Below, piece after piece: positions 2,404 through 62,797 of a stretch of DNA of 64,000 nt (its first letter is position 1; every line of letters starts with the position of its first letter). The stretch lies in the sequence record NC_000866.4; one strand, written 5' to 3'. The stretch comes from Escherichia phage T4. The notes beneath the pieces were generated by a model, which had not been told where the DNA came from, did no database searches, and saw only the letters and a list, made by a program, of their open reading frames with translations. Made by a program: the position numbers and the translations under genes.

Positions 2404-2457
2404 TTCAATATCCTCATTTGCCCAATTAATTATACCACATCCTTGTGGTAAAGTAAA

Positions 2458-2990
2458 CTACTGGCTCATCCATTCTTTACGAAGGTCAGCATTATCTCCC
2501 ATGAGCATTTCAAAAAGCTCTTTCCAGTTCTCAGGAAGTTTAACAACATCATATACTGGGTTTTGAATCATCTCACGATATTCAGATTTTTCCAAAGAGC
2601 CAAGTCCCTTAATATAACGGATGCTATGTTTAGGTAGAGCATCTTTGGCACTCTCATATTCAGCGACTGTATAAAACCATTCTTGTTTTTTACCGACCTG
2701 AGCGATGATTACAGGAGTTTTGACAAAGCGAATTCGTCCTTGCTCAAACAATTCTGGCCAATTACTAAAAAATCCGAGCAGAGAAGGATAAATAGAACCT
2801 AATCCAATAATCTCTTAATTATGAGGTATTTCTATAGATAGCCCGAAGGCTATCCATCGTGATCTGCGTCTGTCATAATAGCGACATTCGCATAGTTCAT
2901 TGAAGAGGATTTAATAGAACGACGAACATTGTTCTGCAATTTATATTTTTTCATATCAACGCTAGAAGAATCAATTTTTACAAATTTCAT
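2458..2990 (-). CDS. 60: DNA topoisomerase II subunit gp60, translated across a 50-nt coding gap
   Basis: Two ORF-track pieces (2850..3041 holding MKFVKIDSS...MTDADHDG then stop; 2458..2751 holding the C-terminal part) separated by the classic bypass sequence; ATG at 2988-2990. Confidence 0.9.
2803..2855 (-). other. translational bypass (hop) element: take-off GGA, UAG stop, UUCG-loop hairpin, landing GGA
   Basis: Minus-strand sequence GGA UAG CCUUCGGGCUAUCUAUAGAAAUACCUCAUAAUUAAGAGAUUAUU GGA read directly; take-off GGA at 2853-2855, stop at 2850-2852, landing GGA at 2803-2805. Confidence 0.88.
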
Positions 2991-3351
2991 TATACACCTC
3001 ATAGAACTTTTCATCAGGAATCCAACCGCGTTTAAATTCATTAAATGCTCGGCCGAATAATTTTGAATTCACAGTTATATTATTAACTGATTTCCATTTA
3101 GCAACTCCCGTTCGTTTATAATGATCGGGGTCATATTTCGTGACGTACCATTCATATAAATTTGGTATTAATTTTACAGCCTCTGGATTTGTCGCTGATT
3201 TATTATACCATGGTTTCGCTTTTTCAAGTTCAGCTGCTTTTGCAGTAGCAGCAACAGTATTTCCAACACCAACTAATTTTTCAGTTTTAATGCGTGGATC
3301 ATTAACATGAAGACGAAAAACTTCGCCCTTTTCATTTTTAAAGCATGTCAT
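2971..3351 (-). pseudogene. mobA: mobA-like truncated homing-endonuclease remnant
   Basis: 126-aa ORF between genes 60 and 39; upstream 3352-3777 has no intact ORF on either strand. Confidence 0.45.
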
Positions 3352-3777
3352 GCCTTTAATTCCAGGAAGCTTAACACCTTTATTAACACCGCATCATTCC
3401 TTTGGGTTAAATGATCCTTTAATTAATAAGGCGCATTTACCCGATTTAACTACTTCTCATTCAACAACTTTATCTTTCATAACGTTTTTTGACCATTCAG
3501 ATACTGCTCTTTGATGGCTAAATTCTAGCAATTTCACTATAATTTGCACTAGAACGTAAACTATTTTTCAGTGTTTCAACATTCTATTCATCGCATATGC
3601 CATTTCACGATTACGATGAATTTTATATAGTAGAAAATAGTGCTAAAAAGTGTTCACGAAAAGTCATGTTTCACCAAATTTTCGTTATCATCAGAACCTC
3701 CCATTGATCTTGGAAGGATATGATGAATTTCACCCTTAAATTTAGAAACGCGGGTTTTACCCCGCACTATTAAGTCA

Positions 3778-5328
3778 TTATAGATTTTTTCGTAATTCAC
3801 CTACTGTTATCCATTTACCATTAATCTGTACTTCATCATTTTCATTTACGATAATTGTATCGCCATTTAGCTCGAAAGTAAACCACTCGCCATCTTCTTT
3901 TTCTTCAAACGCTTTTTCACCGAGAACTAGACCAGTGATTGCGCAAATATCAAATAGTTCTTTGTTTTTAAGCATATCTGCATAAGACATACCCCAACTG
4001 TTGAGAACTTTACCACGCAATGGATAACCACCGTGAAGTTCTTTATCACGAACATCAATAAGATATCCGATAGCCGAATCACCCTCAGTCAAGAAAAGAG
4101 TAGTATCAGCATCTTTACCGCAAAGATTCGCTTTGATATGTTTATGAACCTTAGCTTTAGAAGCCTTTTTAGCTGCTTTAGTTTCTGCTGCTTTTTCTGC
4201 CGCCAATTTACGAGCCAAAGCAGCTTCAATAATCGGCATTAGAATTGCTTCATTATTTAGAATATCACGTGAAATCTTTTTAGCATCAAGTTGAATATGA
4301 CTACGAATTTCGCCAAATGGAGAAGTCAAACGCTCTTTAGTTTGACGAATCAATCGCATGTTTTTCATATCACGAACAAACATAACGATAGTCAAACATT
4401 CTTTGACACGTGCTTTAGTCACATCAATTTTGAACTTACGTTTGATTTGTGGAATAAGGTCTTCACAAATATCATCCATAGCGCAGTCAATGTGATGGCC
4501 ACCATTCTTAGTATGAATGTTATTGACGTATGTTAATTGACGAAAACCATCCGGTGAACGACCAACCGCAATAGAACAATTTTCTTGCTCTTGAACAATA
4601 GCATGTTCATCATACTGCCGTGCATATTTCTTAAAATTGCCCTGAACCTTTTTACCATTAAAGGTAAATTGAATATCAGGATAAACTACAGCAAGTGTCT
4701 GGAGACGATCCAGTGTAATGTCAAGATAAACTTGGGACAGCTCATTAGTTTCAAATGACATAAAATCAGGAATGAAAGTAACACGAGTTCCTTTCCATTT
4801 TCCAGGAATATCTTCCCATGATTTATTTTCCATGCCATTTGAACAACGAACTACAATATTATTTTGACCGTCGCCAGTTTCACCGACAAACATCACAGAA
4901 AAAATGTTTGTCAAACTAGAACCAACACCGTTCATACCGCCGGTGACGCGTTCTTTATCATCACCAAAGTTACCACCTGCTTTTGGAATAGTCCATGCGG
5001 CAACAGGACCAGGAATTTCTTCACCGGTAGGTGTTTTAACCATCGCTTGTGGAATACCGCGACCGTTATCTTCAACTGTTACTTGATTGTTTTTAATAGT
5101 AACATTAATTTTATTCGCGAATTTAAACTTAGTACGAATACCTTCATCTACTGAGTTATCGATAATTTCATCAATAAGCTTAACAAGACCAGGTACATAC
5201 TGAACACTTTCCCATTTACCAAACATAAAGCGCTCATGCGTTTCATTAGCAGAAGAGCCAATGTACATGCCACTACGCTTTTTGATATGTTCAATATCGC
5301 TCAGAATTTTAATTTCATTCTTAATCAT
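3778..5328 (-). CDS. 39: DNA topoisomerase II large subunit gp39 (GyrB-like ATPase)
   Basis: ORF MIKNEIKILSDIEHIKKRSGMYIGSS..., GHKL ATPase motifs; ORF-track start is GTG at 5329-5331, ATG at 5326-5328 gives 516 aa. Confidence 0.94.
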   Translation of the reverse strand: MIKNEIKILSDIEHIKKRSGMYIGSSANETHERFMFGKWESVQYVPGLVKLIDEIIDNSVDEGIRTKFKFANKINVTIKNNQVTVEDNGRGIPQAMVKTPTGEEIPGPVAAWTIPKAGGNFGDDKERVTGGMNGVGSSLTNIFSVMFVGETGDGQNNIVVRCSNGMENKSWEDIPGKWKGTRVTFIPDFMSFETNELSQVYLDITLDRLQTLAVVYPDIQFTFNGKKVQGNFKKYARQYDEHAIVQEQENCSIAVGRSPDGFRQLTYVNNIHTKNGGHHIDCAMDDICEDLIPQIKRKFKIDVTKARVKECLTIVMFVRDMKNMRLIRQTKERLTSPFGEIRSHIQLDAKKISRDILNNEAILMPIIEAALARKLAAEKAAETKAAKKASKAKVHKHIKANLCGKDADTTLFLTEGDSAIGYLIDVRDKELHGGYPLRGKVLNSWGMSYADMLKNKELFDICAITGLVLGEKAFEEKEDGEWFTFELNGDTIIVNENDEVQINGKWITVGELRKNL

Positions 5329-5397
5329 CACTTATCCTCGTTTGGTTTCGGGAATATTATACTCCGGTAATCATAAAGCTAAAGGCCCGAAGGCCTT

Positions 5398-5595
5398 TTA
5401 TTTAAAACGAATAGTTGAATCCTTAAAGAACAGCCCAGAACATACTGTTCCTTCTACTTTCTGCCCGGTAGGTCCAATAGCACGAAATCCAGTATGCTGG
5501 AAATCATTTTCAGAGCAACCGAACCAATTATATCCAGTGATTTCAATATTAGTAAAACCACTTGAAGACAAAACTTTGGTTGCATTAATCAGCAT
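5398..5595 (-). CDS. hypothetical protein (39.1 position)
   Basis: 65-aa ORF followed by a UUCG-loop hairpin. Confidence 0.5.
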   Translation of the reverse strand: MLINATKVLSSSGFTNIEITGYNWFGCSENDFQHTGFRAIGPTGQKVEGTVCSGLFFKDSTIRFK

Positions 5596-5701
5596 CAGTA
5601 CTATTAATTAAAGACACTGCTAATACTAATGCTGCAATTGAACGACTAATATATTTCATAACTACCCTTTAAGCAAGTCGTAAAATCCATTATTCCCATG
5701 C

Positions 5702-5839
5702 TTAGGAAGCGGAAACTAACCGAACAGCCAGCCGATGACAATCAGGACATACACCAGTATCTCTTCCAGAAATTTTCTTGATTTTTTCGTATTCTTTTGC
5801 ACAGTCTTTGGATTGACATTTATAATCATAAAGCGGCAT
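5702..5839 (-). CDS. possible 45-aa zinc-ribbon protein (CxxC...CxxC)
   Basis: Translation gives MPLYDYKCQSKDCAKEYEKIKKISGRDTGVCPDCHRLAVR... only if one extra T is read in a T-run near 5820; the goF ORF-track coordinates imply my reading is 1 nt short in this interval. Confidence 0.35.
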   Translation of the reverse strand: MPLYDYKCQSKDCAKEYEKIKKISGRDTGVCPDCHRLAVRLVSAS

Positions 5840-5841
5840 AA

Positions 5842-6267
5842 TTATTCCTTAAAGTAAGCTTTCAACATCTGATATAAAGACCACGCCTGATCATTATTTT
5901 CAATAGTAACTTTCATGACTGGGAATTCTGTGAAATCTTCTATTTGTTCTTGCTCTTTCTCTTCCTGCTCTTGCTCTTCAACCGCCTGATATGGATTTTC
6001 CACTTCATCAAAGAACCCAGCTTCGTTAGTAGAGAGCCAGATAAAGTTTTCGTCAAGGATATCACCGCCGGCACAACGTTTGAGTACACCTATGGATGTC
6101 ATAATTTTAGTAGGACGCCCAAGATAATCAGCATCTAAAATTTTAAAAGGCTCCATACCTAAACGTCGTGCATAGATTCCGTTATCAGTATGGTCTTTAA
6201 TAAAATTTTCTTGAGCTTGTTTATTTTTAAATTGATACCATTTATTAACTTCAAATTTAATAGCCAT
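5842..6267 (-). CDS. goF: 141-aa protein, probably goF
   Basis: 141-aa [15 protein letters not shown]... at the goF position and length. Confidence 0.6.
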
Positions 6268-6482
6268 TAATAAATTTCCTTCCAGTAAGTTGTGCCGTCT
6301 TCAGTAATTTCACGAAATACACCATAAATTGGCTGTTTATCACCGACTTTCTCATACACATAAACAGAAGTCAAGTGAGTAAACTTGCTAGTATGTTCCT
6401 TTTGAACTACTACCAAATTTGGATCAAATAATACATCTTCAAATTCATCATTAGTGCAATTCTGAACAATTTTACGTTTCAT
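6267..6482 (-). CDS. cef: 71-aa protein, probably cef
   Basis: 71-aa ORF whose stop overlaps the goF start; synteny. Confidence 0.5.
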
Positions 6483-6652
6483 TACAATTTCCTCATTAAT
6501 TGAACAGTGGAGCGATACGTTTCAGAAGAGTATCAACACCTTTAGCGAATTTTCCATTTTATTCTCCAAGTTGTTTTCTGTATCAGTAGTTGATATTGAT
6601 ATAGTACCATAATCAACTACTGATGTATATAGTTTTATGAAAAATTTAAACT

Positions 6653-7141
6653 TTATGCATAGAGAGCATTGCTATAGTGTTTAATCCAACTTTCAGGAAT
6701 GACTTTGTATGTTCCTAAAAATACCACGTTGTACAACTTAACACCATCTTCTACCCATTGATCGGTAATGTATCCACACATAGCGCGAGTATAAACAACC
6801 CTTCCATCATCTTTAATAAAGTTAAATTCACAAGGAGCAATGAACTTGATAGCCTGACCGAGTTTCCACTTAAAGTCTACACCTACATGCGAAGTATCAA
6901 TCGTTTCAATTCCTTTAGCAGGAACAGCTTTTAAAAACGCAGACTCAAGAAATTTCGCACGAACATAGCCAAACTGGGGTTTAGACTTTCCATCTTTAGG
7001 AATGATACGCACTTTTACTTCAGAATCTTCATCTTTAACACCATGCTTAAGCTGAATGCTTACAACTTCGACCAATTTTCCTGCTGCTTTAGAACGGGAT
7101 TTATCAGATACACGAGCTAATTCACCAATATTAATAATCAT
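6653..7141 (-). CDS. motB: 162-aa protein, probably MotB
   Basis: 162-aa ORF with an early promoter upstream; synteny. Confidence 0.6.
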   Translation of the reverse strand: MIINIGELARVSDKSRSKAAGKLVEVVSIQLKHGVKDEDSEVKVRIIPKDGKSKPQFGYVRAKFLESAFLKAVPAKGIETIDTSHVGVDFKWKLGQAIKFIAPCEFNFIKDDGRVVYTRAMCGYITDQWVEDGVKLYNVVFLGTYKVIPESWIKHYSNALYA

Positions 7142-7185
7142 AGTTATCTCTCACTTGTTAAAAAGATTTTATACTCCACGGGACC

Positions 7186-7216
7186 ATTATACTCTGGTCC
7201 CAAGAGTTTGTAAACT
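7186..7216 (-). promoter_or_regulatory. early sigma70-type promoter (GTTTAC -35, TATAAT -10)
   Basis: Minus strand reads GTTTACaaactcttgggaccagagTATAAT upstream of 6653..7141. Confidence 0.6.
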
Positions 7217-7290
7217 ATTAATTCAAAATAGCTACCACTGCACTACGAGGAACTACGGAGTACTCTCCAGCATGAACTACGTTCAGAAGT

Positions 7291-7650
7291 TCAACGCCAT
7301 CTTCCAATCCATTGGTCAGTTACCCAACCACCAATCGGATTCGCAAATGGACGACGAATGTAAACTGCCTTACACAACAAATCAGTCGGGTCTTCAGGTT
7401 TTTCAATTTCTGTCAATAGATTAAAATCTTCTTCATAGATGATGAATGATGATACCCTTCCATAATAGTTTCTAATTTCCATGTACACTGTACCAATGAG
7501 AATTCCACTATTAACACTAATGACAGTAAAAGGATATCCGCCAGTTGTACCAAGAAGTTCCCAAAATTTGCTATCAGTCGTATTCGACATTGTCTGAAAA
7601 TCAATTTCAGATGGTTTTTTCATTTGATACGCAGTATTAATTTTAATCAT
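7291..7650 (-). CDS. hypothetical protein
   Basis: 119-aa ORF in the minus-strand array. Confidence 0.55.
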   Translation of the reverse strand: MIKINTAYQMKKPSEIDFQTMSNTTDSKFWELLGTTGGYPFTVISVNSGILIGTVYMEIRNYYGRVSSFIIYEEDFNLLTEIEKPEDPTDLLCKAVYIRRPFANPIGGWVTDQWIGRWR

Positions 7651-7660
7651 AATTTTCTCT

Positions 7661-8200
7661 TTAGTTTAAGGTAATAAAGCCTTTTAGTTCGGCATAGGAT
7701 TTACGGAACATTACTTGATGCCCGCCAATGATAACTTGGTCATCTGGTACTTCGTATACAGCAAGATAAAATCCTTTCGAAGCTAATTCTTCACGCTCTT
7801 CTCGTGTGAACCATTTCATCATATCATATTCGCTAGCAAAAGCAAAATGATAAAGAGCTACAAACCATCCGGGAATATGATATTCTACTCCAACATAATC
7901 TTTCTTGAACTTAGTATTAATTACGATATTAGCATTTTTAACTAATAGTTTGTCTTCGTGCGGCACAGGAATTCTTTTATTATCATTACTATGATGCATA
8001 AAATTAGGTCTGTCATAACCTACATGTAATAACCACTCTTCACTCCATGAATCTATTATACTTCTATACGGCGTTATTTGAACACAAAGATCTCGGCGTA
8101 TTGTTATAGCGTCTTCATAATTAAGAATACTAAACGATGATTCAACACGATAAATTTTCATTTTATTATCCTCAGTAGCTATGGTGTTATAGTACCACAA
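7661..8200 (-). CDS. hypothetical protein
   Basis: 179-aa ORF in the minus-strand array; true start may be an internal Met. Confidence 0.55.
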   Translation of the reverse strand: MWYYNTIATEDNKMKIYRVESSFSILNYEDAITIRRDLCVQITPYRSIIDSWSEEWLLHVGYDRPNFMHHSNDNKRIPVPHEDKLLVKNANIVINTKFKKDYVGVEYHIPGWFVALYHFAFASEYDMMKWFTREEREELASKGFYLAVYEVPDDQVIIGGHQVMFRKSYAELKGFITLN

Positions 8201-8224
8201 CTAACCGAGGAAGTAAACAACTTT

Positions 8225-8908
8225 TTATCGTTTTGTTGGAAGAGATAGAGGATCGCATTCTTCCTCTGATGGAGCATCTTCAAGACCCATAGCATATCGC
8301 AAAGCATACTTCATCATCAGGATGTCTTTCGCACAGTCATGAATAGAATCATGTGCAACGAATCCATCTAAAGTTCCCTTTGGAAGAGGACACGTTGTCA
8401 TATCACGAACAAGCAGAAGTGCTTCAATTCTAGTACGAATATCACGCTGATTCCAAAATTTACAAGGTTCTAACTTAAATGTATCAAGCTCATTCTCGGA
8501 AACGCCGTTAAGACGTTGAATATCGCGAATAAGATCGACTAAAATTGGAAAATCAAACGACATTCCACGGCACCAGCCTTGAGATTTCCAAGGATCGATA
8601 TTATGTGCATTGATGTAATCATTAAATTTTGCAATACCGTCGATAGTGCTTACATCTTCATCGGATGGTGCAATATTTTTTCGAGCTTCAGGAGATTGAT
8701 TCTTCCACCATTCGATAGTACTTTTAGTAAAAAGACGGTGTCCTTTTTGGCTTTTTAAATCAAATTTGATTTTAATGCCACGTGAAACTAATTCATCGAA
8801 TGTTTCAACTACTTCTGGATTAGGGTCAAAAGCAATTACAGCCAAATCAATAACCGCTGCTTTTTCACCACTTCCCATTGTTTCAAAATCTATAATAAAA
8901 TCAAACAT
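8225..8908 (-). CDS. dexA: exonuclease A (DnaQ-like 3'-5' exonuclease)
   Basis: 227-aa ORF MFDFIIDFETMG... with DxE exonuclease motif. Confidence 0.88.
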   Translation of the reverse strand: MFDFIIDFETMGSGEKAAVIDLAVIAFDPNPEVVETFDELVSRGIKIKFDLKSQKGHRLFTKSTIEWWKNQSPEARKNIAPSDEDVSTIDGIAKFNDYINAHNIDPWKSQGWCRGMSFDFPILVDLIRDIQRLNGVSENELDTFKLEPCKFWNQRDIRTRIEALLLVRDMTTCPLPKGTLDGFVAHDSIHDCAKDILMMKYALRYAMGLEDAPSEEECDPLSLPTKR

Positions 8909-9165
8909 TAAATTTTCCTCGCTAAATCACGAATTTGACCTACAGTATAGTCTTGAATATAAACTTTATTAATAGGCTCATCAATAAATTTTGCCATAGA
9001 TTCAATATCTTTTTGTATTTCTTCAAGACTGTATACTATCTTTGAAGCTTTTTCGCGAATAGTGATATTTTCAGGACCCGGATTTTCTTGAATGACAACT
9101 TTAACATTTGTCATAAGAGATTTAAACTGGTACCAACTTAATTCAATCATTAATAATCGCCTCAT
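8908..9165 (-). CDS. hypothetical protein
   Basis: 85-aa ORF, start overlaps upstream stop. Confidence 0.55.
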   Translation of the reverse strand: MRRLLMIELSWYQFKSLMTNVKVVIQENPGPENITIREKASKIVYSLEEIQKDIESMAKFIDEPINKVYIQDYTVGQIRDLARKI

Positions 9166-9403
9166 AAAGATAGCTAATTTCGCCTAAAACATAATCATTG
9201 ATTGTAACAGTTTTAACTTCACCGCAAAAGAATTCTAACGCAATTAAATCTCGTTCAATTTCTTCTAATTGAAGCATCAACTTACTAGATTCAATTTTTA
9301 CAGTTTCACGATTTTTGCTATAAGCTATTTCATAAATTTCGCTTACTTTATCTTGAAGAAGATAAAACTGATCTTTAGTTATTTCCACGAATAGCTTCCT
9401 CAA
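9143..9403 (-). CDS. hypothetical protein
   Basis: 86-aa ORF. Confidence 0.55.
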   Translation of the reverse strand: MRKLFVEITKDQFYLLQDKVSEIYEIAYSKNRETVKIESSKLMLQLEEIERDLIALEFFCGEVKTVTINDYVLGEISYLYEAIIND

Positions 9404-9409
9404 ATTTAA

Positions 9410-10729
9410 TCATACATAAAACACATCATAACGACCACGGGTGACACCAACATAAAGAAGTTGTTGAGCTAATTCAACATCTGCATAATGAATACAAGGC
9501 GTATAAATGAAAGCACGGTCTACAGACATACCCTGCGCTTTATGGAATGTTGATGCAGGAAGTGCTTTCACTTTACTAAACTGTGATTTAGCATCCCAAA
9601 AATCACTCCACGGAGCTTTTCCGCCTTTGTTCCAATTTTTATAAGTTTCTGCTGTTTTAGCTAAAAATAGGTTAAACTTATACAATTCTTCGTCAGATGA
9701 AATTATTTTAATCTTTTCACGATAATATTCATCATCGCCATAAGTTTCTACTGTTAAATCCCAATGACGAATTAGATATTCTCCAGGAACACCACGGGCT
9801 TTAACAAACGTTGATGTATACTCTGCTTCTATAATACGAACTAATTGTCCGTTATTAAAAATAATTTCTGACACAGGCTTTCCATCAATTTTATATGTTT
9901 TAAATAATGGTTCCTGCATTACAATAATTTCACCGACAATAAAATCTTTATCAGTTTCAAAAATCTTTTTACGAATAATGCTATTTAACTTGTCAACAGA
10001 TTTATTCGTAAATGCCATTACGCGATTTTCAAACAAATCATCTAGTGATTTGACGATTGAAAAATAATTTACCATAAAATCGCGTAAAGCGGTATCACCA
10101 GTAAATCCACGTACTCCATGCCCGTCAACAACTTTATCATAATTCCACTTACCGTTGCGAACGTCAGTAGCTACATCAATAATAGGAGCATTACTGCGTT
10201 TAACTTCAGTGAGTTCACACTGATAAAAATCTTTATGTGTAAAGAATGGACTGATATAAGCAGTATTTTCTCCTGGTTCAACAGGTCTGATTTGCTTATT
10301 ATCCCCTATTCCAATTATAGTACACCAAGGTGGAATAGTTGAAAGCAGAATTTTAAATAGCTTTCTATCATACATTGACACTTCGTCGCAGATTAATACT
10401 CTGCATTTGGCTAAATCAGGTACTTCTTTTTGTTCAAAAAGAACATTTTCTTCATATGTTACTGGGTTAATTTTAAGAATACTATGAATAGTACTCGCTT
10501 CTTTCCCTGATAGTTTTGAAAGAATCTTTTTAGCTGCATGTGTAGGAGCTGCTAAAATAATACCAGTTCCACCCGTAGATATTAAAGCTTCAATGATGAA
10601 CTTAGTAAGAGTAGTCTTACCGGTACCAGCAGGTCCATTAATAGTTACATGATGTTTCTTTTCTTTAATAGCCTTCATAACAATGTTAAAGGCATTTTTC
10701 TGGCCTTCGGTCAAATCATCAAATGTCAT
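9410..10729 (-). CDS. dda: Dda DNA helicase (SF1)
   Basis: 439-aa ORF, Walker A GPAGTGKT. Confidence 0.94.
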   Translation of the reverse strand: MTFDDLTEGQKNAFNIVMKAIKEKKHHVTINGPAGTGKTTLTKFIIEALISTGGTGIILAAPTHAAKKILSKLSGKEASTIHSILKINPVTYEENVLFEQKEVPDLAKCRVLICDEVSMYDRKLFKILLSTIPPWCTIIGIGDNKQIRPVEPGENTAYISPFFTHKDFYQCELTEVKRSNAPIIDVATDVRNGKWNYDKVVDGHGVRGFTGDTALRDFMVNYFSIVKSLDDLFENRVMAFTNKSVDKLNSIIRKKIFETDKDFIVGEIIVMQEPLFKTYKIDGKPVSEIIFNNGQLVRIIEAEYTSTFVKARGVPGEYLIRHWDLTVETYGDDEYYREKIKIISSDEELYKFNLFLAKTAETYKNWNKGGKAPWSDFWDAKSQFSKVKALPASTFHKAQGMSVDRAFIYTPCIHYADVELAQQLLYVGVTRGRYDVFYV

Positions 10730-11037
10730 CGTAAATTCCCTGCAATTGGTATACTAACAATACGCCCAGTATCTAAAATTCGCTGATATAATCTTTGCGT
10801 GTCTACGTCAGGCTTAACATGTTTAACTTCTATTTTATTAAACCAAAATTTACGTGGAGTCTCAACTAATCTTGGAATTCCCTTACCTAAAGCTAATCGA
10901 TACTGCTCTTTAAGAGTGGTAAATACTTTATCAGCAATCTTCCATTCAAAAAATACAGCAGGACGATGTTCATCAAGCGGAACTGGCGCTGTAAATCCGT
11001 CTTTGTCTCGGTAAACTATCGCATATACATAAACCAT
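10726..11037 (-). CDS. hypothetical protein
   Basis: 103-aa ORF. Confidence 0.6.
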   Translation of the reverse strand: MVYVYAIVYRDKDGFTAPVPLDEHRPAVFFEWKIADKVFTTLKEQYRLALGKGIPRLVETPRKFWFNKIEVKHVKPDVDTQRLYQRILDTGRIVSIPIAGNLR

Positions 11038-11038
11038 A

Positions 11039-11785
11039 TTATCCTCGGATAAGTTTAAAAATTGAACAATTTAGCGGATATCCTCTTTTCAGTTTAAGTT
11101 TATCAATAAAAGACAAATTTTGATACCGCTCTACACCTTGAATAATTTTATCACACATATCATATTGCATTTCTGCTTCTGACAACTTTTTCACAATTTT
11201 CCAATCCGAGCCTTTAAGAAGAACGTTCAATTTAACAACTTCAGCGCCTTCTGCTATGCGAGAACCATCAATACGTGCTTTAAGTGCTATAATTCTCAGC
11301 TTAATGTCAGAGGTCTGTTTTGATTTAGAAAGCTGAGAAATGTGTTCAATTCGATTTTCACGTTTTTTCTGTATAGCTTTAATTTGATTATAAGTCTTTT
11401 TGATTTTAGCCCATTTCTTTTCATCTAAATTTAGTTTATGAACTTTTTTCGCAGATGAACGACCAATTCGCAAAGCAAATAAATCACGCTTTTCAATCAA
11501 CTCTTCTAAAGTATAATCAGAACGAAATGTATTATACTTTTTCTTTACTGCAATAACATTCCCTTTAATGTATCCAACGTTATTATCAAAACGTTCTAAT
11601 GATAATTTCTCTCCTTCAATACGATTATCAAAAGGTTCTCCCGAGTAAGCACAAACTTTTTGATCTAAAATGTTCTTAATGTAATTGAAGTCTAAGTTAA
11701 AATCTTTAGAACGTCTTTTTGCAGATGCCTGAGTATGCTCTAAACGACGTTTAATTTTACGAATTTGGTTATTAGACAGCTTCAT
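11039..11785 (-). CDS. srd: 248-aa basic protein, probably Srd
   Basis: 248-aa lysine/arginine-rich ORF at the srd position. Confidence 0.55.
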   Translation of the reverse strand: MKLSNNQIRKIKRRLEHTQASAKRRSKDFNLDFNYIKNILDQKVCAYSGEPFDNRIEGEKLSLERFDNNVGYIKGNVIAVKKKYNTFRSDYTLEELIEKRDLFALRIGRSSAKKVHKLNLDEKKWAKIKKTYNQIKAIQKKRENRIEHISQLSKSKQTSDIKLRIIALKARIDGSRIAEGAEVVKLNVLLKGSDWKIVKKLSEAEMQYDMCDKIIQGVERYQNLSFIDKLKLKRGYPLNCSIFKLIRG

Positions 11786-11907
11786 ATTTTTCTCACATCT
11801 TACGGACGGTTAACTACTTATACTATAACATTTTTACTTTAACTTGTAAACAACTTTATGAAAAATGCTTTAAAACTTTCATGGTATAATGAATCTAAGT
11901 CCTTCCA

Positions 11908-13130: not shown

Positions 13131-13197
13131 GATAGCCTCCGTATACTTCAGAAGCTATCATATCATCGTTAGAAAGGAAAGTAAACAACTTTTTGAA

Positions 13198-13380: not shown

Positions 13381-13388
13381 ATTAATTC

Positions 13389-15322: not shown

Positions 15323-15330
15323 TTGAGTTA

Positions 15331-53885: not shown

Positions 53886-53911
53886 TTTGTGTTCCTCCGT
53901 AGTTGATAGTT

Positions 53912-53943
53912 GTATAGTACCACAGAGGAACGGTCTTGTAAAC
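53912..53943 (-). promoter_or_regulatory. early sigma70-type promoter
   Basis: Minus strand GTTTAC -35 with a TATAC-type -10, same arrangement as the other early promoters here. Confidence 0.5.
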
Positions 53944-53945
53944 AA

Positions 53946-54260
53946 CTAAAAGAAACTTCTTTCACAATTTTTTCCACTGAACCAAGCGCTCACTGCTTTC
54001 TTAGTTTCAGGAGCAGTGTTATCCATAAACCATTCAAAGGCAGCCTTTTTATGATTCTGGAGGGCTTCTCGGGCTTTAATCTGCTCACGGTCTATTAACA
54101 CTAACATATGAGCCTTTCTTGTCACCAGGGGCTTCTTATGATTTTTTGAATACTCCCAATCATTTGTCCATCGCATCGTTGTTGCGAATTGAAATACAGC
54201 TTCTTTAATCTTAGTTTCGTAAATTTCACGAGCCTTTGAGTATAACATCATTACCTCCAT
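53946..54260 (-). CDS. hypothetical protein
   Basis: 104-aa ORF. Confidence 0.5.
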   Translation of the reverse strand: MEVMMLYSKAREIYETKIKEAVFQFATTMRWTNDWEYSKNHKKPLVTRKAHMLVLIDREQIKAREALQNHKKAAFEWFMDNTAPETKKAVSAWFSGKNCERSFF

Positions 54261-54342: not shown

Positions 54343-55332
54343 TTATGAATTTATTTCAGAAGAGTAACCCGTAGCGATTTCTTCCCAACCGTTTTTGTCG
54401 GTCATAATAAAGTCAGCAAGATAAAGTGCAGTACGCAGTGAAACATTACGTAAACGGTTAACATTGACTTTCATCCATGATAATGCTTTATAAGTTTCTT
54501 CATCAGAAAGACCACGCTTTTGCATCATGTCGGTTGAAAGAATAACATCTTCAACCCTGACCATAATTTCTTCATTAGTGTGAACACCCAAATCCAAATA
54601 AACTGAGCGGGACACTAATGCTTGTAAATGTGGAGCAAGTTTAGTACCACGGTCTAATTCGCGGTCAATGTCAACGTTTGTGATAAAAACAATTGTTCCT
54701 TTAAATTCGAGCTCACGCTCAATGCCTTTTTCTTCTAAGTAAGAAGATGCAGTGCTCCAGCAGACTTTACGGGTCTCTCCAGTGTCCAGAGCAGCTTTCA
54801 GAAGATTAAGAATGTCCATATCAGAGAAAACATCCACATCATCAATCAAAAGGACAGAATTCTCTTCACGATTATTCCAAAGCTGTTCATAAAGACCGAT
54901 ACCAGAGATTTTACCGTTAATGCTTTTATACTCAATGTATCCAATATCATTTGCTTTATTCAAAGCTTTATCTAAAGAATATGTTTTACCAATACCCGCC
55001 GCACCAGAGATAATTAATGAACGAATATTTCCGTTAATAATACCATTCGTCATCATTCCCATAACATTAAATCTTTTATTAATGCGGGTTTTCATATCTT
55101 CATATGATTCTTTAACTTCTTCAACTTTTACACCATCATATGAAATGTCTGATTTGTAAACCCAAACACCGCGACGTTTACCGTCAATTTCAACAAAAAC
55201 TTTACCATCTCCTTGTGCATCTACCGGAGCATTATCAGGGAACCATTCACCTAAGAGCTCAAAAGTTCCAGAGATTTCTTTACCGAAGTACATACCCTTA
55301 TTGATAGTTACAGTTTTCATTTTATTCTCCAA
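54343..55332 (-). CDS. predicted P-loop NTPase (AAA-like ATPase)
   Basis: 329-aa ORF with Walker A GAAGIGKT and Walker B LLIDDVD. Confidence 0.65.
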   Translation of the reverse strand: MENKMKTVTINKGMYFGKEISGTFELLGEWFPDNAPVDAQGDGKVFVEIDGKRRGVWVYKSDISYDGVKVEEVKESYEDMKTRINKRFNVMGMMTNGIINGNIRSLIISGAAGIGKTYSLDKALNKANDIGYIEYKSINGKISGIGLYEQLWNNREENSVLLIDDVDVFSDMDILNLLKAALDTGETRKVCWSTASSYLEEKGIERELEFKGTIVFITNVDIDRELDRGTKLAPHLQALVSRSVYLDLGVHTNEEIMVRVEDVILSTDMMQKRGLSDEETYKALSWMKVNVNRLRNVSLRTALYLADFIMTDKNGWEEIATGYSSEINS

Positions 55333-55352
55333 ATCCGTATCAGTTGATAGTT

Positions 55353-55384
55353 GTATAGTACCATAAAGCTTTATGCTTGTAAAC
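55353..55384 (-). promoter_or_regulatory. early sigma70-type promoter
   Basis: Minus strand GTTTAC -35 with an A-rich upstream tract. Confidence 0.5.
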
Positions 55385-55412
55385 CGTTTTGTGAAAAAAT
55401 TTTGAAATAAAA

Positions 55413-55432
55413 AAGGGAGCCCGAAGGCTCCC
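55413..55432 (-). terminator. UUCG-tetraloop hairpin
   Basis: agggagc-ccgaagg-ctccct inverted repeat directly after the 55435 stop. Confidence 0.55.
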
Positions 55433-55434
55433 TA

Positions 55435-56445
55435 TCATTTATAATAACTTCGATGGTTTTCAAGATAAACCCTCTCAAGGAAGTCATCCCAGAAACTCAT
55501 GTCTACTTTTTGCTGCATACCGTTCTTAGAAGCTTCAGTAGATGCTGCTTCTACTTGATCGACCACATCTTCCAAAAACTCTTGAACGGTTTTAAATGGA
55601 TGCTTACCCAACTTCACGTCGAGAATAAATGGAGCATCTTGGAGTGGATAAACCAAGTCACCAGTTTTGTAAATTTCCAATAGTTGAAGTCCACCACGAC
55701 AAGCATGGCTCAGAGCTTTCCAGTCAATGCCTTCATTGGCTTCGGCCTTACGAGCACGTTCGCCGTATTCAGCATCTAATTTGTTCAGTGACTGCTTAAG
55801 CTCAATAAGAGAAAGCGTTGTCTGATATTTACGACCCAACACTGTGTAAAACGTTTGTGGGCCTGTTTTCTCATGATTATGGAACACCCATTCACAGAAT
55901 TCGTTTTCTGGAAGACGATGCTTAATATCTTCAACTTTAGTACGACGCTGCTTAATGGAACCATCTTCTTGGTAATCAACCCATTGCTCAGGGATTTGAT
56001 TAACTACTTTCAATACATCGCGTAATGCAGCCAAACGAGAACCCTTGACGCCGTATTTAGAAGCTTGCTTGCGGACATATCCTAAATATGATTTCATGTT
56101 AGTCGTATAAAAACGAGAACGGTTGTCTTGAATAAACTTCCAAACATCAGGCAAATCGGATTTAACCACTAGTTCAGGTGGAGTGTGAAGCATATCCAAT
56201 GCTACAGGTTCACCATCTGCTGCTAATTTAAAGAAATACTTAAGACTATACAATTCGTGGTCAATATTATCTTTAGTGTTTTTAGATGATGTGTTGTTGG
56301 TATTTTTACTCATGTGCTCTTTGACGTTTCCAATAAGAATATCGCGAGCAGGAGGAACAAAGATTTCTTTAAAATCTACATCAGATTCTGGAGTAGAAGT
56401 TCCATAAAGATGACTACCAAAATAAGACTTAACTACAGTTTTCAT
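55435..56445 (-). CDS. predicted Pol-beta-type nucleotidyltransferase
   Basis: ORF with the minimal NTase motif GSHLYGTSTPESDVD (GS...S/D-x-D); ATG at 56443-56445. Confidence 0.6.
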   Translation of the reverse strand: MKTVVKSYFGSHLYGTSTPESDVDFKEIFVPPARDILIGNVKEHMSKNTNNTSSKNTKDNIDHELYSLKYFFKLAADGEPVALDMLHTPPELVVKSDLPDVWKFIQDNRSRFYTTNMKSYLGYVRKQASKYGVKGSRLAALRDVLKVVNQIPEQWVDYQEDGSIKQRRTKVEDIKHRLPENEFCEWVFHNHEKTGPQTFYTVLGRKYQTTLSLIELKQSLNKLDAEYGERARKAEANEGIDWKALSHACRGGLQLLEIYKTGDLVYPLQDAPFILDVKLGKHPFKTVQEFLEDVVDQVEAASTEASKNGMQQKVDMSFWDDFLERVYLENHRSYYK

Positions 56446-57828: not shown

Positions 57829-58154
57829 TACATACTCCTCTGAATCATATTAATAATGTTATTCACCAGATTATAAGTAAACATTGGGTAATTATATTGA
57901 ATCATCACATATATAACAAACAAAACTTTCATTCTCTTCTCCTTGGCAGTTGACAAGATTACTATACCATAATCTTGTCAACTTGTAAACCATTAAATGA
58001 CGTTTTCGATAAAATTTTGAAGCTTTGTATGAGCATCAACCATGATTTTCATTTCTTCCTTGGAAAAGCTGTGCCTCTTTCCCGAGAAGAACATTCATAG
58101 TCAGAAACTGCATTAGCATATTCTTCAATTAGCTTCATTAAAAACATCTGTTTT

Positions 58155-58748: not shown

Positions 58749-58780
58749 GTATAGTACCACAGCTCAAACGGAAAGTAAAC
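58749..58780 (-). promoter_or_regulatory. early sigma70-type promoter
   Basis: Minus strand GTTTAC -35 with a TATAC-type -10. Confidence 0.5.
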
Positions 58781-58795
58781 CGGTAAAATGAAAAA

Positions 58796-58815
58796 AAGTC
58801 TCCCGAAGGAGACTA
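58796..58815 (-). terminator. UUCG-tetraloop hairpin
   Basis: agtctcc-cgaa-ggagact inverted repeat after the 58819 stop. Confidence 0.55.
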
Positions 58816-61389: not shown

Positions 61390-61733
61390 CTAGTACTCAA
61401 TCCTCGATTATAAGAATCTACCAAACGGTCAACCATTGAATGACAAGCGGCTTTATCTTTCTCCTCCGCAACTGAACATTCTAAGGTATTCCACTTTTTA
61501 GCATATCGTTTTAACAATGTATCGTTTTTGTATCTGCTTGATTTATCTCTTTCTCCGTCTTTATATGCATATATTAATTTCTGTGCAAATTCAGCTTGGC
61601 ATGCCTTATTTTTCCCACAATAATCTGCCGCAGTGCGGTTTACATATTCTCTAATTTCAGTATATGATGTATCTGCTGACGCAGAAGCAGAAAATGAAAT
61701 TAATCCTATACATAAAACCAAAATTTTAGTCAT
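61386..61733 (-). CDS. secreted 115-aa protein (vs position)
   Basis: 115-aa ORF with N-terminal signal peptide (MTKILVLCIGLISFSASASA). Confidence 0.6.
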   Translation of the reverse strand: MTKILVLCIGLISFSASASADTSYTEIREYVNRTAADYCGKNKACQAEFAQKLIYAYKDGERDKSSRYKNDTLLKRYAKKWNTLECSVAEEKDKAACHSMVDRLVDSYNRGLSTR

Positions 61734-62271
61734 TTACTATTTCCAAAAGTTTATTATTTTTAAGGTAATTAGCCTTTTCTAGGACTTCAGAAGCATATTT
61801 AGAACCTGCTTTAACATTCCATCCCGAATTATAAGAGGATATTGCTTTTCTTATATCGCCCTTATGTATATTTAACCAATAAGAAAGTTCAATGTACGCC
61901 CAGGAAGCTGAATTGGATCGTTTATTCAACATTCTTTTTATTTCAGCATCGGTCATATTATAACCAAGTTCCTTAACTCTTGCTCGCATAGTAGGCAAAT
62001 AATTTTGGAACATTCCGTAGGCGTGATGCTTTGGTTTAGATTTTAAATTAACTCCGCCAGAGCTTTCTTGCCATAAAATGGCAGCCATTATATGACCTAA
62101 TCCGCTCTTGTGGATATTTTTGTGTGTTTTATATTTTCCATCCTTAGAAAATTGTTCCCCGAATTGATACGCGTAACGCATGTTATCGAGTTGGACATTA
62201 CTGAAAGTATGCTCGGAGCTATGTGCCATCATTGAAATGGCCAATAGACCAGCGAGTAGTGCTTTTCTCAT
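61726..62271 (-). CDS. secreted lytic-transglycosylase-like protein
   Basis: 181-aa ORF with signal peptide and SLT-like motif (AAILWQESSGG). Confidence 0.6.
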   Translation of the reverse strand: MRKALLAGLLAISMMAHSSEHTFSNVQLDNMRYAYQFGEQFSKDGKYKTHKNIHKSGLGHIMAAILWQESSGGVNLKSKPKHHAYGMFQNYLPTMRARVKELGYNMTDAEIKRMLNKRSNSASWAYIELSYWLNIHKGDIRKAISSYNSGWNVKAGSKYASEVLEKANYLKNNKLLEIVND

Positions 62272-62278
62272 GCTTACC

Positions 62279-62740
62279 TCATTGAGTTTTAATTACTGCT
62301 TTAGAAGCCTTTCCTGGTAAACGACGACTGTTGATAATTGCCATCCTACATTGAAGTGACGGGTCTTTGAACTTCTCGTTAGGTTTACAAACTGTAAATC
62401 CAAGCCAAAGATTTCCATCTGTGATTTCTAAACGTCCAGGACGATATTCAACCCCATCAATAAAATCCTCGTCAATGTCAGGACGCGGAGGCATACTCAG
62501 GAATTCATTAACTTCTAAAACATGGTCTTTTATTTTATGGAATAATTCAAAAACGTATGTCTCATCAATCTCCCGTTGAATTGCGCGATCAAGAAGATGT
62601 TGAGAATATTTTAGATGAAACGATGAGACTCCTGCTGCTTTTGATGCCTCACGAATCTCATTGTTAATTTGACGAAACTCCGACTCAAAGTGACGACGAA
62701 GCTTATTTCGACGGATAAAAACTTCTGTATTGATAGTCAT
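62279..62740 (-). CDS. regB: endoribonuclease RegB
   Basis: 153-aa ORF MTINTEVFIRRNKLRRHFESEFRQINNEIREA... Confidence 0.88.
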   Translation of the reverse strand: MTINTEVFIRRNKLRRHFESEFRQINNEIREASKAAGVSSFHLKYSQHLLDRAIQREIDETYVFELFHKIKDHVLEVNEFLSMPPRPDIDEDFIDGVEYRPGRLEITDGNLWLGFTVCKPNEKFKDPSLQCRMAIINSRRLPGKASKAVIKTQ

Positions 62741-62768
62741 GTTATTCTCCTCTTAACTGATAGAAAAA

Positions 62769-62797
62769 TTATACCACAGTCAAGAGGAAAAGTAAAC
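62769..62797 (-). promoter_or_regulatory. early sigma70-type promoter upstream of regB
   Basis: Minus strand GTTTACttttcctcttgactgtgGTATAAT. Confidence 0.6.

Follow-up and report, generated by a model that had tools for sequence, protein, structure and literature searches.

The early promoters of phage T4 are said to have been listed originally by Wilkens and Rueger and by Miller in 2003, and C(UUCG)G tetraloop hairpins were reportedly described in T4 intercistronic regions by Tuerk et al. in 1988 (PNAS 85:1364). T4 middle promoters consist of a MotA box and a -10 element and are used through sigma appropriation by MotA and AsiA. The published early consensus places GTTTAC at -36 to -31 (Nolan 2006, PMC1524935), and the early promoters have been described as UP/-35/TGn/-10 (Hinton 2010, PMC2988021). 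Composites of a hairpin and a middle promoter have been named PmSL in phage nt-1 (Comeau 2014, PMC4122927), and an internal promoter in a translation-initiation hairpin is known from the T4 genes e, soc, 49, and I-TevI (Uzan and Miller 2010, PMC3014915). The window analyzed here, a stretch of 64,000 nt, was the first 64 kb of T4, from rIIA to vs.8, with genes almost all on the minus strand. Its identity to T4 records was 99.7-99.9%, and the middle-promoter start sites mapped in Hinton 2010 Table 1 agreed with its coordinates. The repeated motifs of the window are the well-known T4 early promoters and CUUCGG hairpins and were already known; gene-cassette shuffling aided by such modules is the same idea as the published PeSL model (Arbiol 2010; Comeau 2014, T4/PST). 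We hold with high confidence that the recurrent elements are the standard regulatory punctuation of the T4 early-gene region and that the modules are one contributor to recombination among several.

A search for exact GTTTAC-N(15-19)-TATAAT returned 7 matches, all on the minus strand, compared to a mean of 0.17 in shuffled sequences for both strands together; none of 100 shuffles reached 7. When up to 1 mismatch was allowed, there were 14 minus-strand sites versus 2 plus-strand sites. With TACTAT, TATAGT, TATGAT, or TATTAT also accepted as the -10, we counted 16 intergenic minus-strand sites in which exact GTTTAC was followed after 18 nt by a TATAAT-like hexamer, and all 16 were upstream of a minus-strand gene start. 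TG was present at -15/-14 in 14 of these promoters, and A+T was 72% over the 30 nt upstream of them. Three further GTTTAC-type sites were within coding sequence (3883, 41261, and 47452), and the one in 55.5 is likely a promoter embedded in that gene. The sequence-only reading had claimed at least 10 intergenic minus-strand sites, a number exceeded by our count. Its spacing of about 17 nt was right, since an 18-nt gap after GTTTAC is the canonical 17-nt spacer from TTTAC(A/T), and the range that it gave runs from the outer end of the first promoter (2429) to that of the last (62797). Its labels of early promoter and UUCG hairpin punctuation were accurate, as sequence, spacing, orientation, and position fit T4 early promoters. 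On the basis of sequence and literature, GTTTAC-N18-TAnnAT combined with an A/T-rich UP element and a TGG immediately ahead of the -10 would make strong sigma-70 early promoters, which host RNA polymerase would use immediately after infection.

The minus strand of the window had 11 TTCG-loop hairpins with a stem of at least 6 bp and the plus strand had none; 200 first-order Markov simulations averaged 0.85 such hairpins and reached at most 4. Stems spanned 6-10 bp, the loop-closing pair was C-G in all 11, and no other tetraloop occurred more than twice among the GC-rich hairpins. For 9 of them the start was between -3 and +7 nt relative to the preceding stop codon, in agreement with the roughly 10 GC-rich hairpins after stop codons noted earlier, and the other 2 were within coding sequence. 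The gene 60 hairpin, in a bypass region annotated at 2803-2852 in the T4T record, is in coding sequence and is therefore not a terminator. A clear U-run was missing from 8 of the 11 hairpins, so the term terminator is not established for those 8. The 3 hairpins with a U-run look like intrinsic terminators, and the others are more likely stable 3' structures or barriers; at stop codons, C(UUCG)G hairpins would end or stabilize the upstream message. Seven hairpins were directly followed by the next promoter, which was early in 3 cases and a mapped MotA-dependent middle promoter in 4 (start sites of P39 at 5349, P43 at 29933, P47 at 36576, and PmobB at 38682; Hinton 2010 Table 1, PMC2988021). These data show that the UUCG hairpin is coupled to either promoter class.

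Table 1. Promoters, hairpins, and composite modules of the window, with the repeat family (D number) where one was assigned
Feature	Coordinates	Strand	Description
Early promoter of rIIA.1	2429-2458	-	GTTTAC-N18-TATAAT, TGG extended -10; paralogue of the nrdC.4 promoter (D4), 97% identity with 50944-50975 over 32 nt
C(UUCG)G hairpin, gene 60 translational-bypass region	2834-2857	-	Within coding sequence
C(UUCG)G hairpin (5398-5381) and P39	5349-5398	-	Overlaps 39.1 stop; then MotA box AGCTTTAT and -10; D6
Early promoter of motB	7186-7215	-	-10 in loop of 13-pair hairpin; fold z = -4.2
Early promoter of motB.2	8189-8218	-	TACTAT -10; hairpin fold z = -5.7; Shine-Dalgarno GAGG covered by 3' arm
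Early promoter of srd	11822-11851	-	TATAGT -10
Early promoter of modB	13157-13186	-	TATGAT -10; 14-pair hairpin, -10 paired with Shine-Dalgarno/AUG region; fold z = -4.1
Composite module after soc	15259-15324	-	C(UUCG)G hairpin (15324-15303), U-run, mrh.2 early promoter (15288-15259); D11, 88% identity with 58770-58811
Early promoter of sp	20080-20109	-	TACTAT -10
Early promoter of dmd	20571-20612	-	Within imperfect 13-bp inverted repeat; fold z = -4.9; D3
C(UUCG)G hairpin	22329-22348	-	8 bp, 6 G-C pairs; in gene 40, 38 nt after uvsX stop
imm.1 promoter module	27007-27099	-	UP element, GTTTAC...TACTAT, conserved 5'UTR up to ATG; about 93 nt, paralogous to 55314-55403 (D1, D5, D8)
C(UUCG)G hairpin (29969-29952) and P43	29933-29969	-	3 nt after regA stop; middle promoter directly next
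C(UUCG)G hairpin	31899-31914	-	Between gene 45 (stop 3 nt upstream) and gene 44 (start 33 nt downstream); U-run absent
C(UUCG)G hairpin (36626-36607) and P47	36576-36626	-	Overlaps a-gt stop; then MotA box and -10; D6
C(UUCG)G hairpin (38734-38715) and PmobB	38682-38734	-	Overlaps a-gt.2 stop; then MotA box
C(UUCG)G hairpin	40823-40838	-	Overlaps 55.3 stop codon
Exact GTTTAC-N18-TATAAT in 55.5, upstream of 55.4	41232-41261	-	Coding sequence
Early promoter of 55.6	41677-41706	-	TATTAT -10
Exact GTTTAC-N18-TATAAT in 49.1, upstream of pin	47423-47452	-	Coding sequence
Early promoter of nrdC.4	50944-50973	-	D4
Early promoter of nrdC.8	53914-53943	-	TACTAT -10; hairpin fold z = -5.9; Shine-Dalgarno GGAGG covered by 3' arm
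Composite module after nrdC.11	55314-55433	-	C(UUCG)G hairpin (55433-55414), U-run and UP element, nrdC.10 early promoter (55384-55355), shared 5'UTR
Early promoter of mobD.2	57949-57990	-	TATAGT -10 in perfect 13-bp inverted repeat; fold z = -4.4
Composite module after rI.-1	58751-58814	-	C(UUCG)G hairpin (58814-58797), U-run, mobD.5 early promoter (58780-58751); D11
Early promoter of regB	62768-62797	-	Hairpin fold z = -4.3; Shine-Dalgarno AAGAGGAG covered by 3' arm

The 8 largest direct-repeat families of the window were all promoter/hairpin modules. Their copies were paralogous over 32-93 nt and 88-97% identical, spacers without known function included; the rIIA.1 and nrdC.4 promoters, for example, were identical at 31 of 32 nt, and the similarity of imm.1 to nrdC.10 extended over about 93 nt. 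Identity across spacers and 5'UTRs without known constraint points to common descent or gene conversion and away from convergence, and as paralogous copies the modules are substrates for T4's efficient homologous recombination. The promoter upstream of imm.1 was of the nrdC.8 type in T2 (91% identical to the T4 nrdC.8 promoter over 70 nt) and of the nrdC.10 type in T4.

Between nrdC.11 and nrdC.10, T2 and HY01 carry ORF T2_95 flanked by two modules, and alignment showed T4 55336-55440 to be a chimera of this pair. The crossover zone (55388-55417) was within a shared stretch of about 32 nt, and the inserted segments, 591-601 bp long in these two phages, overlapped T4 sequence by 19-30 nt. PhiZZ23 had a different ORF at this site. 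At nrdC.11/nrdC.10, at least, an ORF cassette was gained or lost by a crossover in these modules, in line with the PeSL model. Cassettes of a promoter plus an ORF were inserted at or beside T4 promoter sites in G28 and T2, and the one in G28 was exactly 5' of the sp promoter GTTTAC. Two different extra ORFs were present between the imm.1 promoter and imm.1 in relatives, and HY01 and PhiZZ23 had a 219-bp ORF inserted 3-6 nt from the regA/P43 hairpin. T2 was without motB.1 and motB.2, with a left breakpoint 1 nt from the motB promoter GTTTAC, and EC121 was without nrdC.4, with a breakpoint 39 nt from the nrdC.4 promoter. Microhomologies of 8 nt, and not homology between modules, were used in the T4 deletions upstream of imm.1 and in the gap between cef and motB.

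In the comparison with five relatives, 9 of the 22 module junctions had breakpoints, as did 30 of the 95 remaining junctions (odds ratio 1.5, p = 0.28). There was consequently no significant association of the elements with variable-region boundaries, the comparison by which the sequence-only reading had proposed that its idea be refuted. Removal of homing-endonuclease events gave 7 of 22 versus 18 of 95 (p = 0.15), and when the comparison was restricted to gaps of 39 nt or more the trend reversed (9 of 21 module junctions versus 9 of 15 others, odds ratio 0.5). At least 7 large differences among relatives were homing-endonuclease cassettes, and many indels involved homing endonucleases or microhomology. 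The majority of small-ORF indels were at junctions that lacked a module. The proposal that these modules could mediate recombination between accessory cassettes was borne out insofar as they are dispersed repeats with a chimera at nrdC.10, but breakpoints were not significantly enriched at them. In this sample the modules are one contributor among several to variable-region boundaries and not the main determinant.

These results could be explained in more than one way. The elements could be purely regulatory, similar through functional constraint or convergence and with no role in recombination, while indels are tolerated in intergenic space. Such an explanation is consistent with the lack of significant breakpoint enrichment, with module junctions being, if anything, broken less often where gaps are at least 39 nt, and with the 97-100% conservation of orthologous promoters between phages, which shows strong functional constraint; however, it does not account for identity that runs through spacers and 5'UTRs without known constraint, for the different promoter types upstream of imm.1 in T2 and T4, or for a crossover within the shared sequence of the chimeric module, and we consider it unlikely. 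Alternatively, accessory ORFs could be gained, lost, and replaced mostly by homologous recombination between modules, possibly with excised mini-circles. We regard this scenario as quite improbable, because the junction-level test was not significant, some 10 of the 17 small-ORF insertions that relatives carry were without a module at either edge, several junctions overlapped by only 3-13 nt at start or stop codons, and the large differences included the homing-endonuclease cassettes. Nonetheless, the modules are the top repeat families, the T2_95 cassette lies between direct repeats of about 32 nt at the site where the T4 module is chimeric, nrdC.10/nrdC.11 and the region upstream of imm.1 each have at least 2 alternative cassettes, and the cassettes of promoter plus ORF exist in G28 and T2; mini-circles have been demonstrated in RB49 and phi1, and PeSLs are near indels in the PST/T4 pair (PMC2839356, PMC4122927).

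Seven of the 16 early promoters were in RNA hairpins (fold z -4.1 to -5.9), with the -10 in or beside the loop except at modB, where it was in the stem; the 3' arm was over the Shine-Dalgarno or AUG in 4 of the 7. At mobD.2, GTTGACAAGATTA at 57949-57961 and its exact reverse complement at 57970-57982 were separated by 8 nt. The dmd copy (20571-20604) was 92% identical to the mobD.2 module over 39 nt (family D3), and its arms (20604-20592 and 20583-20571) paired only with two G-T pairs allowed. The description of promoters inside perfect 13-bp inverted repeats thus held near 57950, and the related copy near 20585 exists but is imperfect. Across 5 relatives, 12 of 14 distinct substitutions at paired positions kept pairing, mostly via G-U (binomial p = 0.006). 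Substitutions in relatives kept the RNA pairing of the dmd hairpin, and in the mobD.2 hairpin A-to-G changes gave G-U pairs and one change was compensatory on both sides. These pairing-preserving substitutions fit an RNA structure on the sense strand. It is very improbable that the inverted repeats around the -10 act instead as DNA, as a cruciform or the operator of a dimeric protein that regulates promoters or starts recombination: the perfect arms at mobD.2 are centered on the extended -10 and a stem-loop-binding protein has been speculated (Arbiol 2010, PMC2839356), yet pairing in the dmd copy and in orthologues from relatives depends on G-T pairs, which are mismatches in DNA and on the antisense strand, the substitutions are mostly compatible with RNA pairing through wobble, and the arms are wholly different among the motB, motB.2, regB, and nrdC.8 promoters, so there is no common operator sequence. 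As RNA structures, the promoter hairpins could be folded in read-through transcripts, and transcripts from the internal promoter would be without the 5' arm. Translation of the downstream gene may thereby be tied to its own promoter, by analogy with e, soc, 49, and I-TevI.

Compared to known systems, the early promoters of the window were the same as T4 early promoters (Pe) in sequence, spacing, extended -10, A/T-rich upstream region, orientation, and position before early genes, with no difference. The C(UUCG)G hairpins likewise did not differ from the Tuerk type in their C-G closed loop, GC-rich stem, and position between early or middle cistrons, and the copy in the gene 60 bypass region also matched. 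Directly after 4 hairpins, (A/T)GCTTTAT and a -10 gave the mapped starts P39, P43, P47, and PmobB; these middle promoters differ from the early promoters described in the sequence-only reading. The composites shared with PeSL (PMC2839356; PMC4122927) the order of stop codon, stem-loop, AT-rich part, -35, -10, Shine-Dalgarno, and ATG, stem-loops that either precede the promoter or overlap the -10, copies conserved up to about 100 bp, and one cassette between two modules with a crossover in the AT-rich part, and the motif of the window matches the T4/PST consensus, TTTACW-N17-TAYWAT. In contrast to PeSL, the association with indel boundaries was not statistically demonstrable in the five-genome comparison, and the stems of RB49 and phi1 are polyG/polyC whereas the T4 stem-loops are UUCG or promoter-specific hairpins. 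As in the cases of Uzan and Miller 2010, the promoter was in the DNA of the 5' half or loop of the hairpin, the 3' half held the Shine-Dalgarno or AUG, and the ribosome-binding site is predicted to be open only in internal-promoter transcripts; however, in those cases late (or middle) promoters delay translation of read-through early transcripts, whereas the promoters here are early.

The eight largest direct-repeat families of the whole 64 kb were all promoter or hairpin modules, that is, units in gene gaps made of an early promoter and/or a C(UUCG)G hairpin. The exact pattern GTTTAC-N15-19-TATAAT occurred seven times, always on the minus strand, compared to 0.17 expected, and with one mismatch allowed there were 14 minus-strand versus 2 plus-strand sites. 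The minus strand also holds nearly all 118 annotated genes, in agreement with the constant negative GC skew. All gaps between genes of 39 nt or more were then listed in the direction of transcription, and a scan was made for exact GTTTAC followed by a TAnnnT hexamer with no more than 2 mismatches to TATAAT. Together these gave 16 intergenic promoters, and three more matches lay inside coding sequence, all on the minus strand; the intergenic ones lie 5' of rIIA.1, motB, motB.2, srd, modB, mrh.2, sp, dmd, imm.1, 55.6, nrdC.4, nrdC.8, nrdC.10, mobD.2, mobD.5, and regB. When the 16 were aligned on the -35, GTTTAC occupied -36 to -31, and a TATAAT-like -10 followed it with the canonical spacer of 17 nt if TTTAC[A/T] is taken as the reference. 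The -10 was extended by TG at -15/-14 in 14 promoters and by TGG in 12, and the 30 nt 5' of the -35 were 72% A+T with the consensus form a..attttt.a.a.A.t., as in an UP element. Every promoter had a minus-strand start codon 25-70 nt downstream. A generic sigma-70 scan with the TTGACA-based E. coli consensus returned 101 sites compared to 91.5 expected in shuffles and was without discrimination; the informative pattern is the T4-specific GTTTAC only, not the generic consensus. GTTTAC at -36 to -31 has been described for T4 early promoters (Nolan 2006, PMC1524935), as has their 'UP/-35/TGn/-10' architecture (Hinton 2010, PMC2988021), and the GTTTAC sites of the window are this published promoter, with activity predicted from sequence. 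Two of the coding-embedded matches, those inside 55.5 and 49.1, are probably genuine promoters within genes. No usable RNA-seq map of T4 transcription starts or 3' ends came out of a literature search.

The hairpins were also one-sided. On the minus strand there were 11 TTCG-loop hairpins with a stem of at least 6 pairs and on the plus strand none, whereas first-order Markov simulations averaged 0.85 and never exceeded 4. All 11 were C(TTCG)G, the loop closed by C-G, with stems of 6-10 pairs including 3-6 G-C, and any other tetraloop occurred no more than twice among the GC-rich hairpins of the window. The bare CTTCGG hexamer was not strand-specific (14 minus versus 13 plus), and the strand bias appeared only in the hairpin context. 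In 9 of the 11, the hairpin began at -3 to +7 nt relative to the upstream gene's stop codon; the set also includes a hairpin inside gene 40 and the translational bypass hairpin of gene 60. CUUCGG hairpins were reportedly first noted in T4 intercistronic regions, by Tuerk in 1988. A clear U-run followed only three hairpins (15324, 55433, and 58814) and a weak one was seen at 40838; the other seven had, in place of a U-run, sequences such as AGCUUUAU or AUUUGGAG. The set of 11 therefore does not have the hairpin and immediate U-run of intrinsic (rho-independent) terminators. Because a clear U-run follows those three only, the name 'terminator' seems justified for them, and the rest would be better called stable intercistronic RNA structures. 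At gathering thresholds, Rfam matched only the nrdD group I intron in the window, and the hairpins belonged to no family. The sequence-only reading had proposed at least ten intergenic GTTTAC sites with TATAAT-like hexamers on the minus strand and about ten GC-rich UUCG hairpins after stop codons; both were borne out, and its regulatory interpretation, early promoters with UUCG punctuation, was correct.

Seven of the 11 hairpins had a promoter directly 3' of them, three of these being early and four MotA-dependent middle promoters. The MotA box GCTTTAT begins only a few bases past the stem, and it was read in the sequences after the hairpins at 5398, 36626, and 38734. A T4 middle promoter is recognized by a MotA box (a/t)(a/t)(a/t)TGCTTtA, separated by 11-13 nt from the -10, and by a mapped start site, and these promoters agree with that pattern. 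The unit of hairpin and MotA box is itself a repeat family (D6). The four start sites are those of Table 1 of Hinton 2010 (PMC2988021), whose middle-promoter start sites landed exactly at the expected window coordinates. The modules also have the layout of promoter-early stem-loop (PeSL) cassettes, namely an intergenic early promoter, a stem-loop, and an AT-rich region between an upstream stop codon and a downstream ATG; a UUCG hairpin lay 5' of the promoter in three modules, and a hairpin overlapped the -10 in seven. Separately, the regA-43 gap contains the hairpin AGCCUAAUAACUCGGGCU between the middle promoter P43 and the start of gene 43, which we take to be the gp43 translational operator, the RNA of the first SELEX experiment. 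Coordinates are collected in the table.

Coordinates of modules and neighboring features (window positions unless stated; minus-strand coordinates run from high to low)
Feature	Position	Strand	Remark
Coding-embedded promoter match	3883-3854	minus	GTTTAC-N18-TACAAT, ahead of mobA, just inside the upstream edge of the mobA/gene 60 cassette
Coding-embedded promoter match	41232-41261	minus	exact GTTTAC-N18-TATAAT inside 55.5, 60-90 nt 5' of the 55.4 start codon
Coding-embedded promoter match	47423-47452	minus	exact GTTTAC-N18-TATAAT inside 49.1, ~40 nt 5' of the pin start codon
UUCG hairpin	2857-2834	minus	gene 60 translational bypass hairpin (T4T annotation)
UUCG hairpin	22348-22329	minus	inside gene 40, 38 nt past the uvsX stop
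Hairpin then early promoter, mrh.2	15.3 kb	minus	
Hairpin then early promoter, nrdC.10	55.4 kb	minus	
Hairpin then early promoter, mobD.5	58.8 kb	minus	
Hairpin then middle promoter, P39	5349	minus	mapped start
Hairpin then middle promoter, P43	29933	minus	mapped start
Hairpin then middle promoter, P47	36576	minus	mapped start
Hairpin then middle promoter, PmobB	38682	minus	mapped start
regA-43 hairpin	~29929-29912	minus	
mobD.2 inverted-repeat arms	57982-57970 / 57961-57949		perfect, 13 bp
dmd promoter	20612-20571		
imm.1 module	27007-27099		
nrdC.10 module	55314-55403		
nrdC.8 module	53880-53957		
T2 imm.1 promoter	L003 24935-25010		T2 coordinates
Shared leader	27007-27050, 55314-55354, 6551-6600	minus	three loci
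T2_95/HY01_0089 junction	55388-55417		alignments overlap 19-30 nt
cef-motB gap	6483-6652		170 nt
mobA/gene 60 split cassette	2794-3910	minus	includes UUCG bypass hairpin
nrdD group I intron	45652-45883	minus	Rfam RF00028, 105 bits; with I-TevII endonuclease ORF
T4-specific segment at nrdD	44815-45849		
dam methyltransferase gene	16805-17735		

We folded 70 nt from each GTTTAC of the 16 promoters. Seven (regB, mobD.2, nrdC.8, dmd, modB, motB.2, and motB) lay in hairpins with z of -4.1 to -5.9, and the -10 was in or beside the loop in all of these except modB, where it was within the stem. At mobD.2, the arms flank TGGTATAG, the extended -10. The sequence-only reading had placed some promoters inside perfect 13-bp inverted repeats, with two sites as examples; the repeat near 57950 was perfect, but the copy near 20585, at dmd, pairs only with two G-T pairs, its module being 92% identical to that of mobD.2. 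The 3' arm contained the Shine-Dalgarno sequence or AUG at regB, nrdC.8, motB.2, and modB, so that the fold would sequester the TIR there, whereas at dmd, mobD.2, and motB the folded stem stopped before the Shine-Dalgarno sequence. None of the seven promoter hairpins was followed by a U-run. Orthologous promoters in the five relatives were 93-100% identical, and among the substitutions at paired positions 14 were distinct, 12 of which kept pairing, mostly as G-U (binomial p = 0.006); one of the 14 was a change on both sides. Since G-U pairing works only in sense-strand RNA, these substitutions indicate selection on the hairpins around the -10 as sense-strand RNA structures, present in read-through transcripts. 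A DNA cruciform or operator role of the inverted repeats was rejected on account of the G-T pairs and the G-U-compatible substitutions.

Transcripts from the internal promoter would, by geometry, be without the 5' arm, and the hairpin could not form in them. Read-through from an upstream cassette, on the other hand, would fold the hairpin, and the downstream gene would be poorly translated or protected from RegB; the ribosome-binding site would be open only in transcripts from the cassette's own promoter. Reduced translation of read-through transcripts would be in line with the 12/14 stem substitutions that preserve RNA pairing. It is a tentative and rather doubtful suggestion that early-promoter-in-hairpin modules are general translational insulators. 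If this were true, each cassette of promoter and ORF would be independently expressed at any place of insertion, which would help explain successful movement. No test of an insulator function of early promoters was found in the T4 literature searched.

Several modules were near copies of one another. Those of imm.1 and nrdC.10 had ~93 nt in common, from the UP element to ATGAAA (families D1, D5, and D8). The rIIA.1 and nrdC.4 promoters were identical at 31/32 nt including the spacer (97%, D4), the dmd and mobD.2 modules at 36/39 nt (92%, D3), and the soc/mrh.2 and rI.-1/mobD.5 modules matched at 88% over 42 nt of hairpin, U-run, and -35 (D11). Dispersed copies were thus conserved over up to ~100 bp, as is characteristic of PeSLs. 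Because the identity extends into spacers and 5'UTRs, it points to common descent or gene conversion and not to convergence. A 5'UTR of the form ACAACTATCAACT(AC)TGATACGGATTTGGAGAAT(A/G)AAATGAAA was also common to three loci 3' of the -10, its homology extending past the Shine-Dalgarno GGAG as far as the start codon; a putative RegB target is one example of its possible function.

Blastn alignments of the homologous regions of T2, vB_EcoM-G28 (G28), HY01, PhiZZ23, and EC121 were chained to the window and the junctions were inspected. Of the cases in keeping with exchange through modules, the clearest was an extra ORF of T2 and HY01 (T2_95/HY01_0089), which forms a unit of promoter, ORF, and hairpin bracketed by the direct repeat CCCTTTT(T)ATTTCAAAAATTTTTTCACAAAA. 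The single T4 module at this site consists of the UUCG hairpin of the upstream module joined to the promoter of the downstream module (alignment A1), a textbook-quality example of a module-to-module crossover. This is one clear comparative case of the PeSL behavior in which recombination between copies deletes or inserts an ORF. In PhiZZ23 this site is occupied by another ORF, with a promoter on either side. In G28, a promoter with its ORF was inserted ahead of the sp promoter, exactly at the 5' side of its GTTTAC; both G28 and T2 had a promoter with an ORF in the dam/dam.1 gap. Between the imm.1 promoter and imm.1, two different ORFs were found among the relatives. Over 70 nt, the T2 imm.1 promoter had 91% identity with the nrdC.8 module of T4, 27 kb away. 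Because the T2 imm.1 promoter matches the nrdC.8 type while that of T4 is of the nrdC.10 type, whole promoter modules may have been exchanged ectopically, as this comparison suggests.

Other differences did not fit such exchange. The insertions at 39.1/39.2, dexA.2/dda, 55/55.1, nrdH/55.8, 47/47.1, mobD.1/mobD.2, and tk.2/tk.3 had no module at either edge, and the T4 deletions 5' of imm.1 and in the cef-motB gap had 8-nt microhomologies. The cef-motB gap is the T4 remnant of an ORF intact in T2, G28, and PhiZZ23, and 5' of the remnant lie the shared 5'UTR and a promoter module in degenerate form (ATATAC...TACTAT); a module-mediated deletion was considered and rejected here, the event being an internal 200-bp ORF deletion with 8-nt microhomology. 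Homing-endonuclease differences comprised segments around mobA, segF, segA, mobB, mobC, I-TevII, and mobD. Of the relatives, only HY01 shared the mobA/gene 60 split cassette of T4, which T2, G28, PhiZZ23, and EC121 lacked, and the nrdD intron with its endonuclease ORF was absent from all five relatives. The dam gene was absent from HY01, PhiZZ23, and EC121, with breakpoints in the 56/dam and dam/dam.1 gaps, neither at an early-promoter module. By megablast of positions 1-20000 and 40001-64000 against a phage collection, the window itself was 99.7-99.9% identical to phage T4 records over the full length, from rIIA. Gene names and annotation were taken from T4T (HM137666), from which the window differed by 87 small differences clustered in mobA, and it resembled the older T4 reference. 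Many of the 87, compared to resequenced T4 strains, were a single extra C or G, the mobA cluster including 3450-3667. Because they are single extra C/G bases clustered in mobA, they suggest sequencing errors of the older reference and not biological variation.

All 117 T4 gene junctions were scored for a breakpoint within 40 nt in any of the five relatives, which are not independent. Breakpoints were found at 9/22 module junctions and 30/95 others (odds ratio 1.5, Fisher p = 0.28), and at 7/22 and 18/95, respectively, when endonuclease events were removed (p = 0.15). Among gaps of at least 39 nt, the counts were 9/21 for module and 9/15 for other junctions (odds ratio 0.5). Module junctions were therefore not significantly oftener at variable-region boundaries than other gene junctions. 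For this small sample with five non-independent relatives, the result does not refute a role of the modules but excludes a dominant one in this region. The proposal that the modules mediate recombination between cassettes was thus partly supported: the T2_95/HY01_0089 crossover speaks for it, but there was no significant association with boundaries.

Every component described here is established T4 biology, and the recombination idea is the published, already known PeSL hypothesis, which the sequence-only reading reached independently. This model, by Arbiol, Comeau, and Krisch, was shown experimentally by mini-circles in RB49 and phi1 (Arbiol 2010, PMC2839356) and has been extended in explicit terms to T4 and PST, with TTTACW-N17-TAYWAT as their consensus (Comeau 2014, PMC4122927). 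The added value is small and consists of the five-relative boundary test, the crossover example, and the pattern of RNA-pairing substitutions around the -10. Of the 13 T4 deletions that Mosig had in the dda-56 region, GGGC/GCCC motifs took part in about half (Arbiol 2010, PMC2839356), and these motifs match the stems of the UUCG hairpins of the window. Both hairpin layouts seen here are among the PeSL subclasses of the same study, in which stem-loops that overlap the -35 and -10 or lie between them were regarded as attenuators. The same internal-promoter hairpin logic has been documented for the T4 genes e, soc, 49, and I-TevI (Uzan and Miller 2010, PMC3014915). However, those hairpins use late and middle promoters, whereas the internal promoters of the window are early, and we infer that the gating logic could extend to early promoters.
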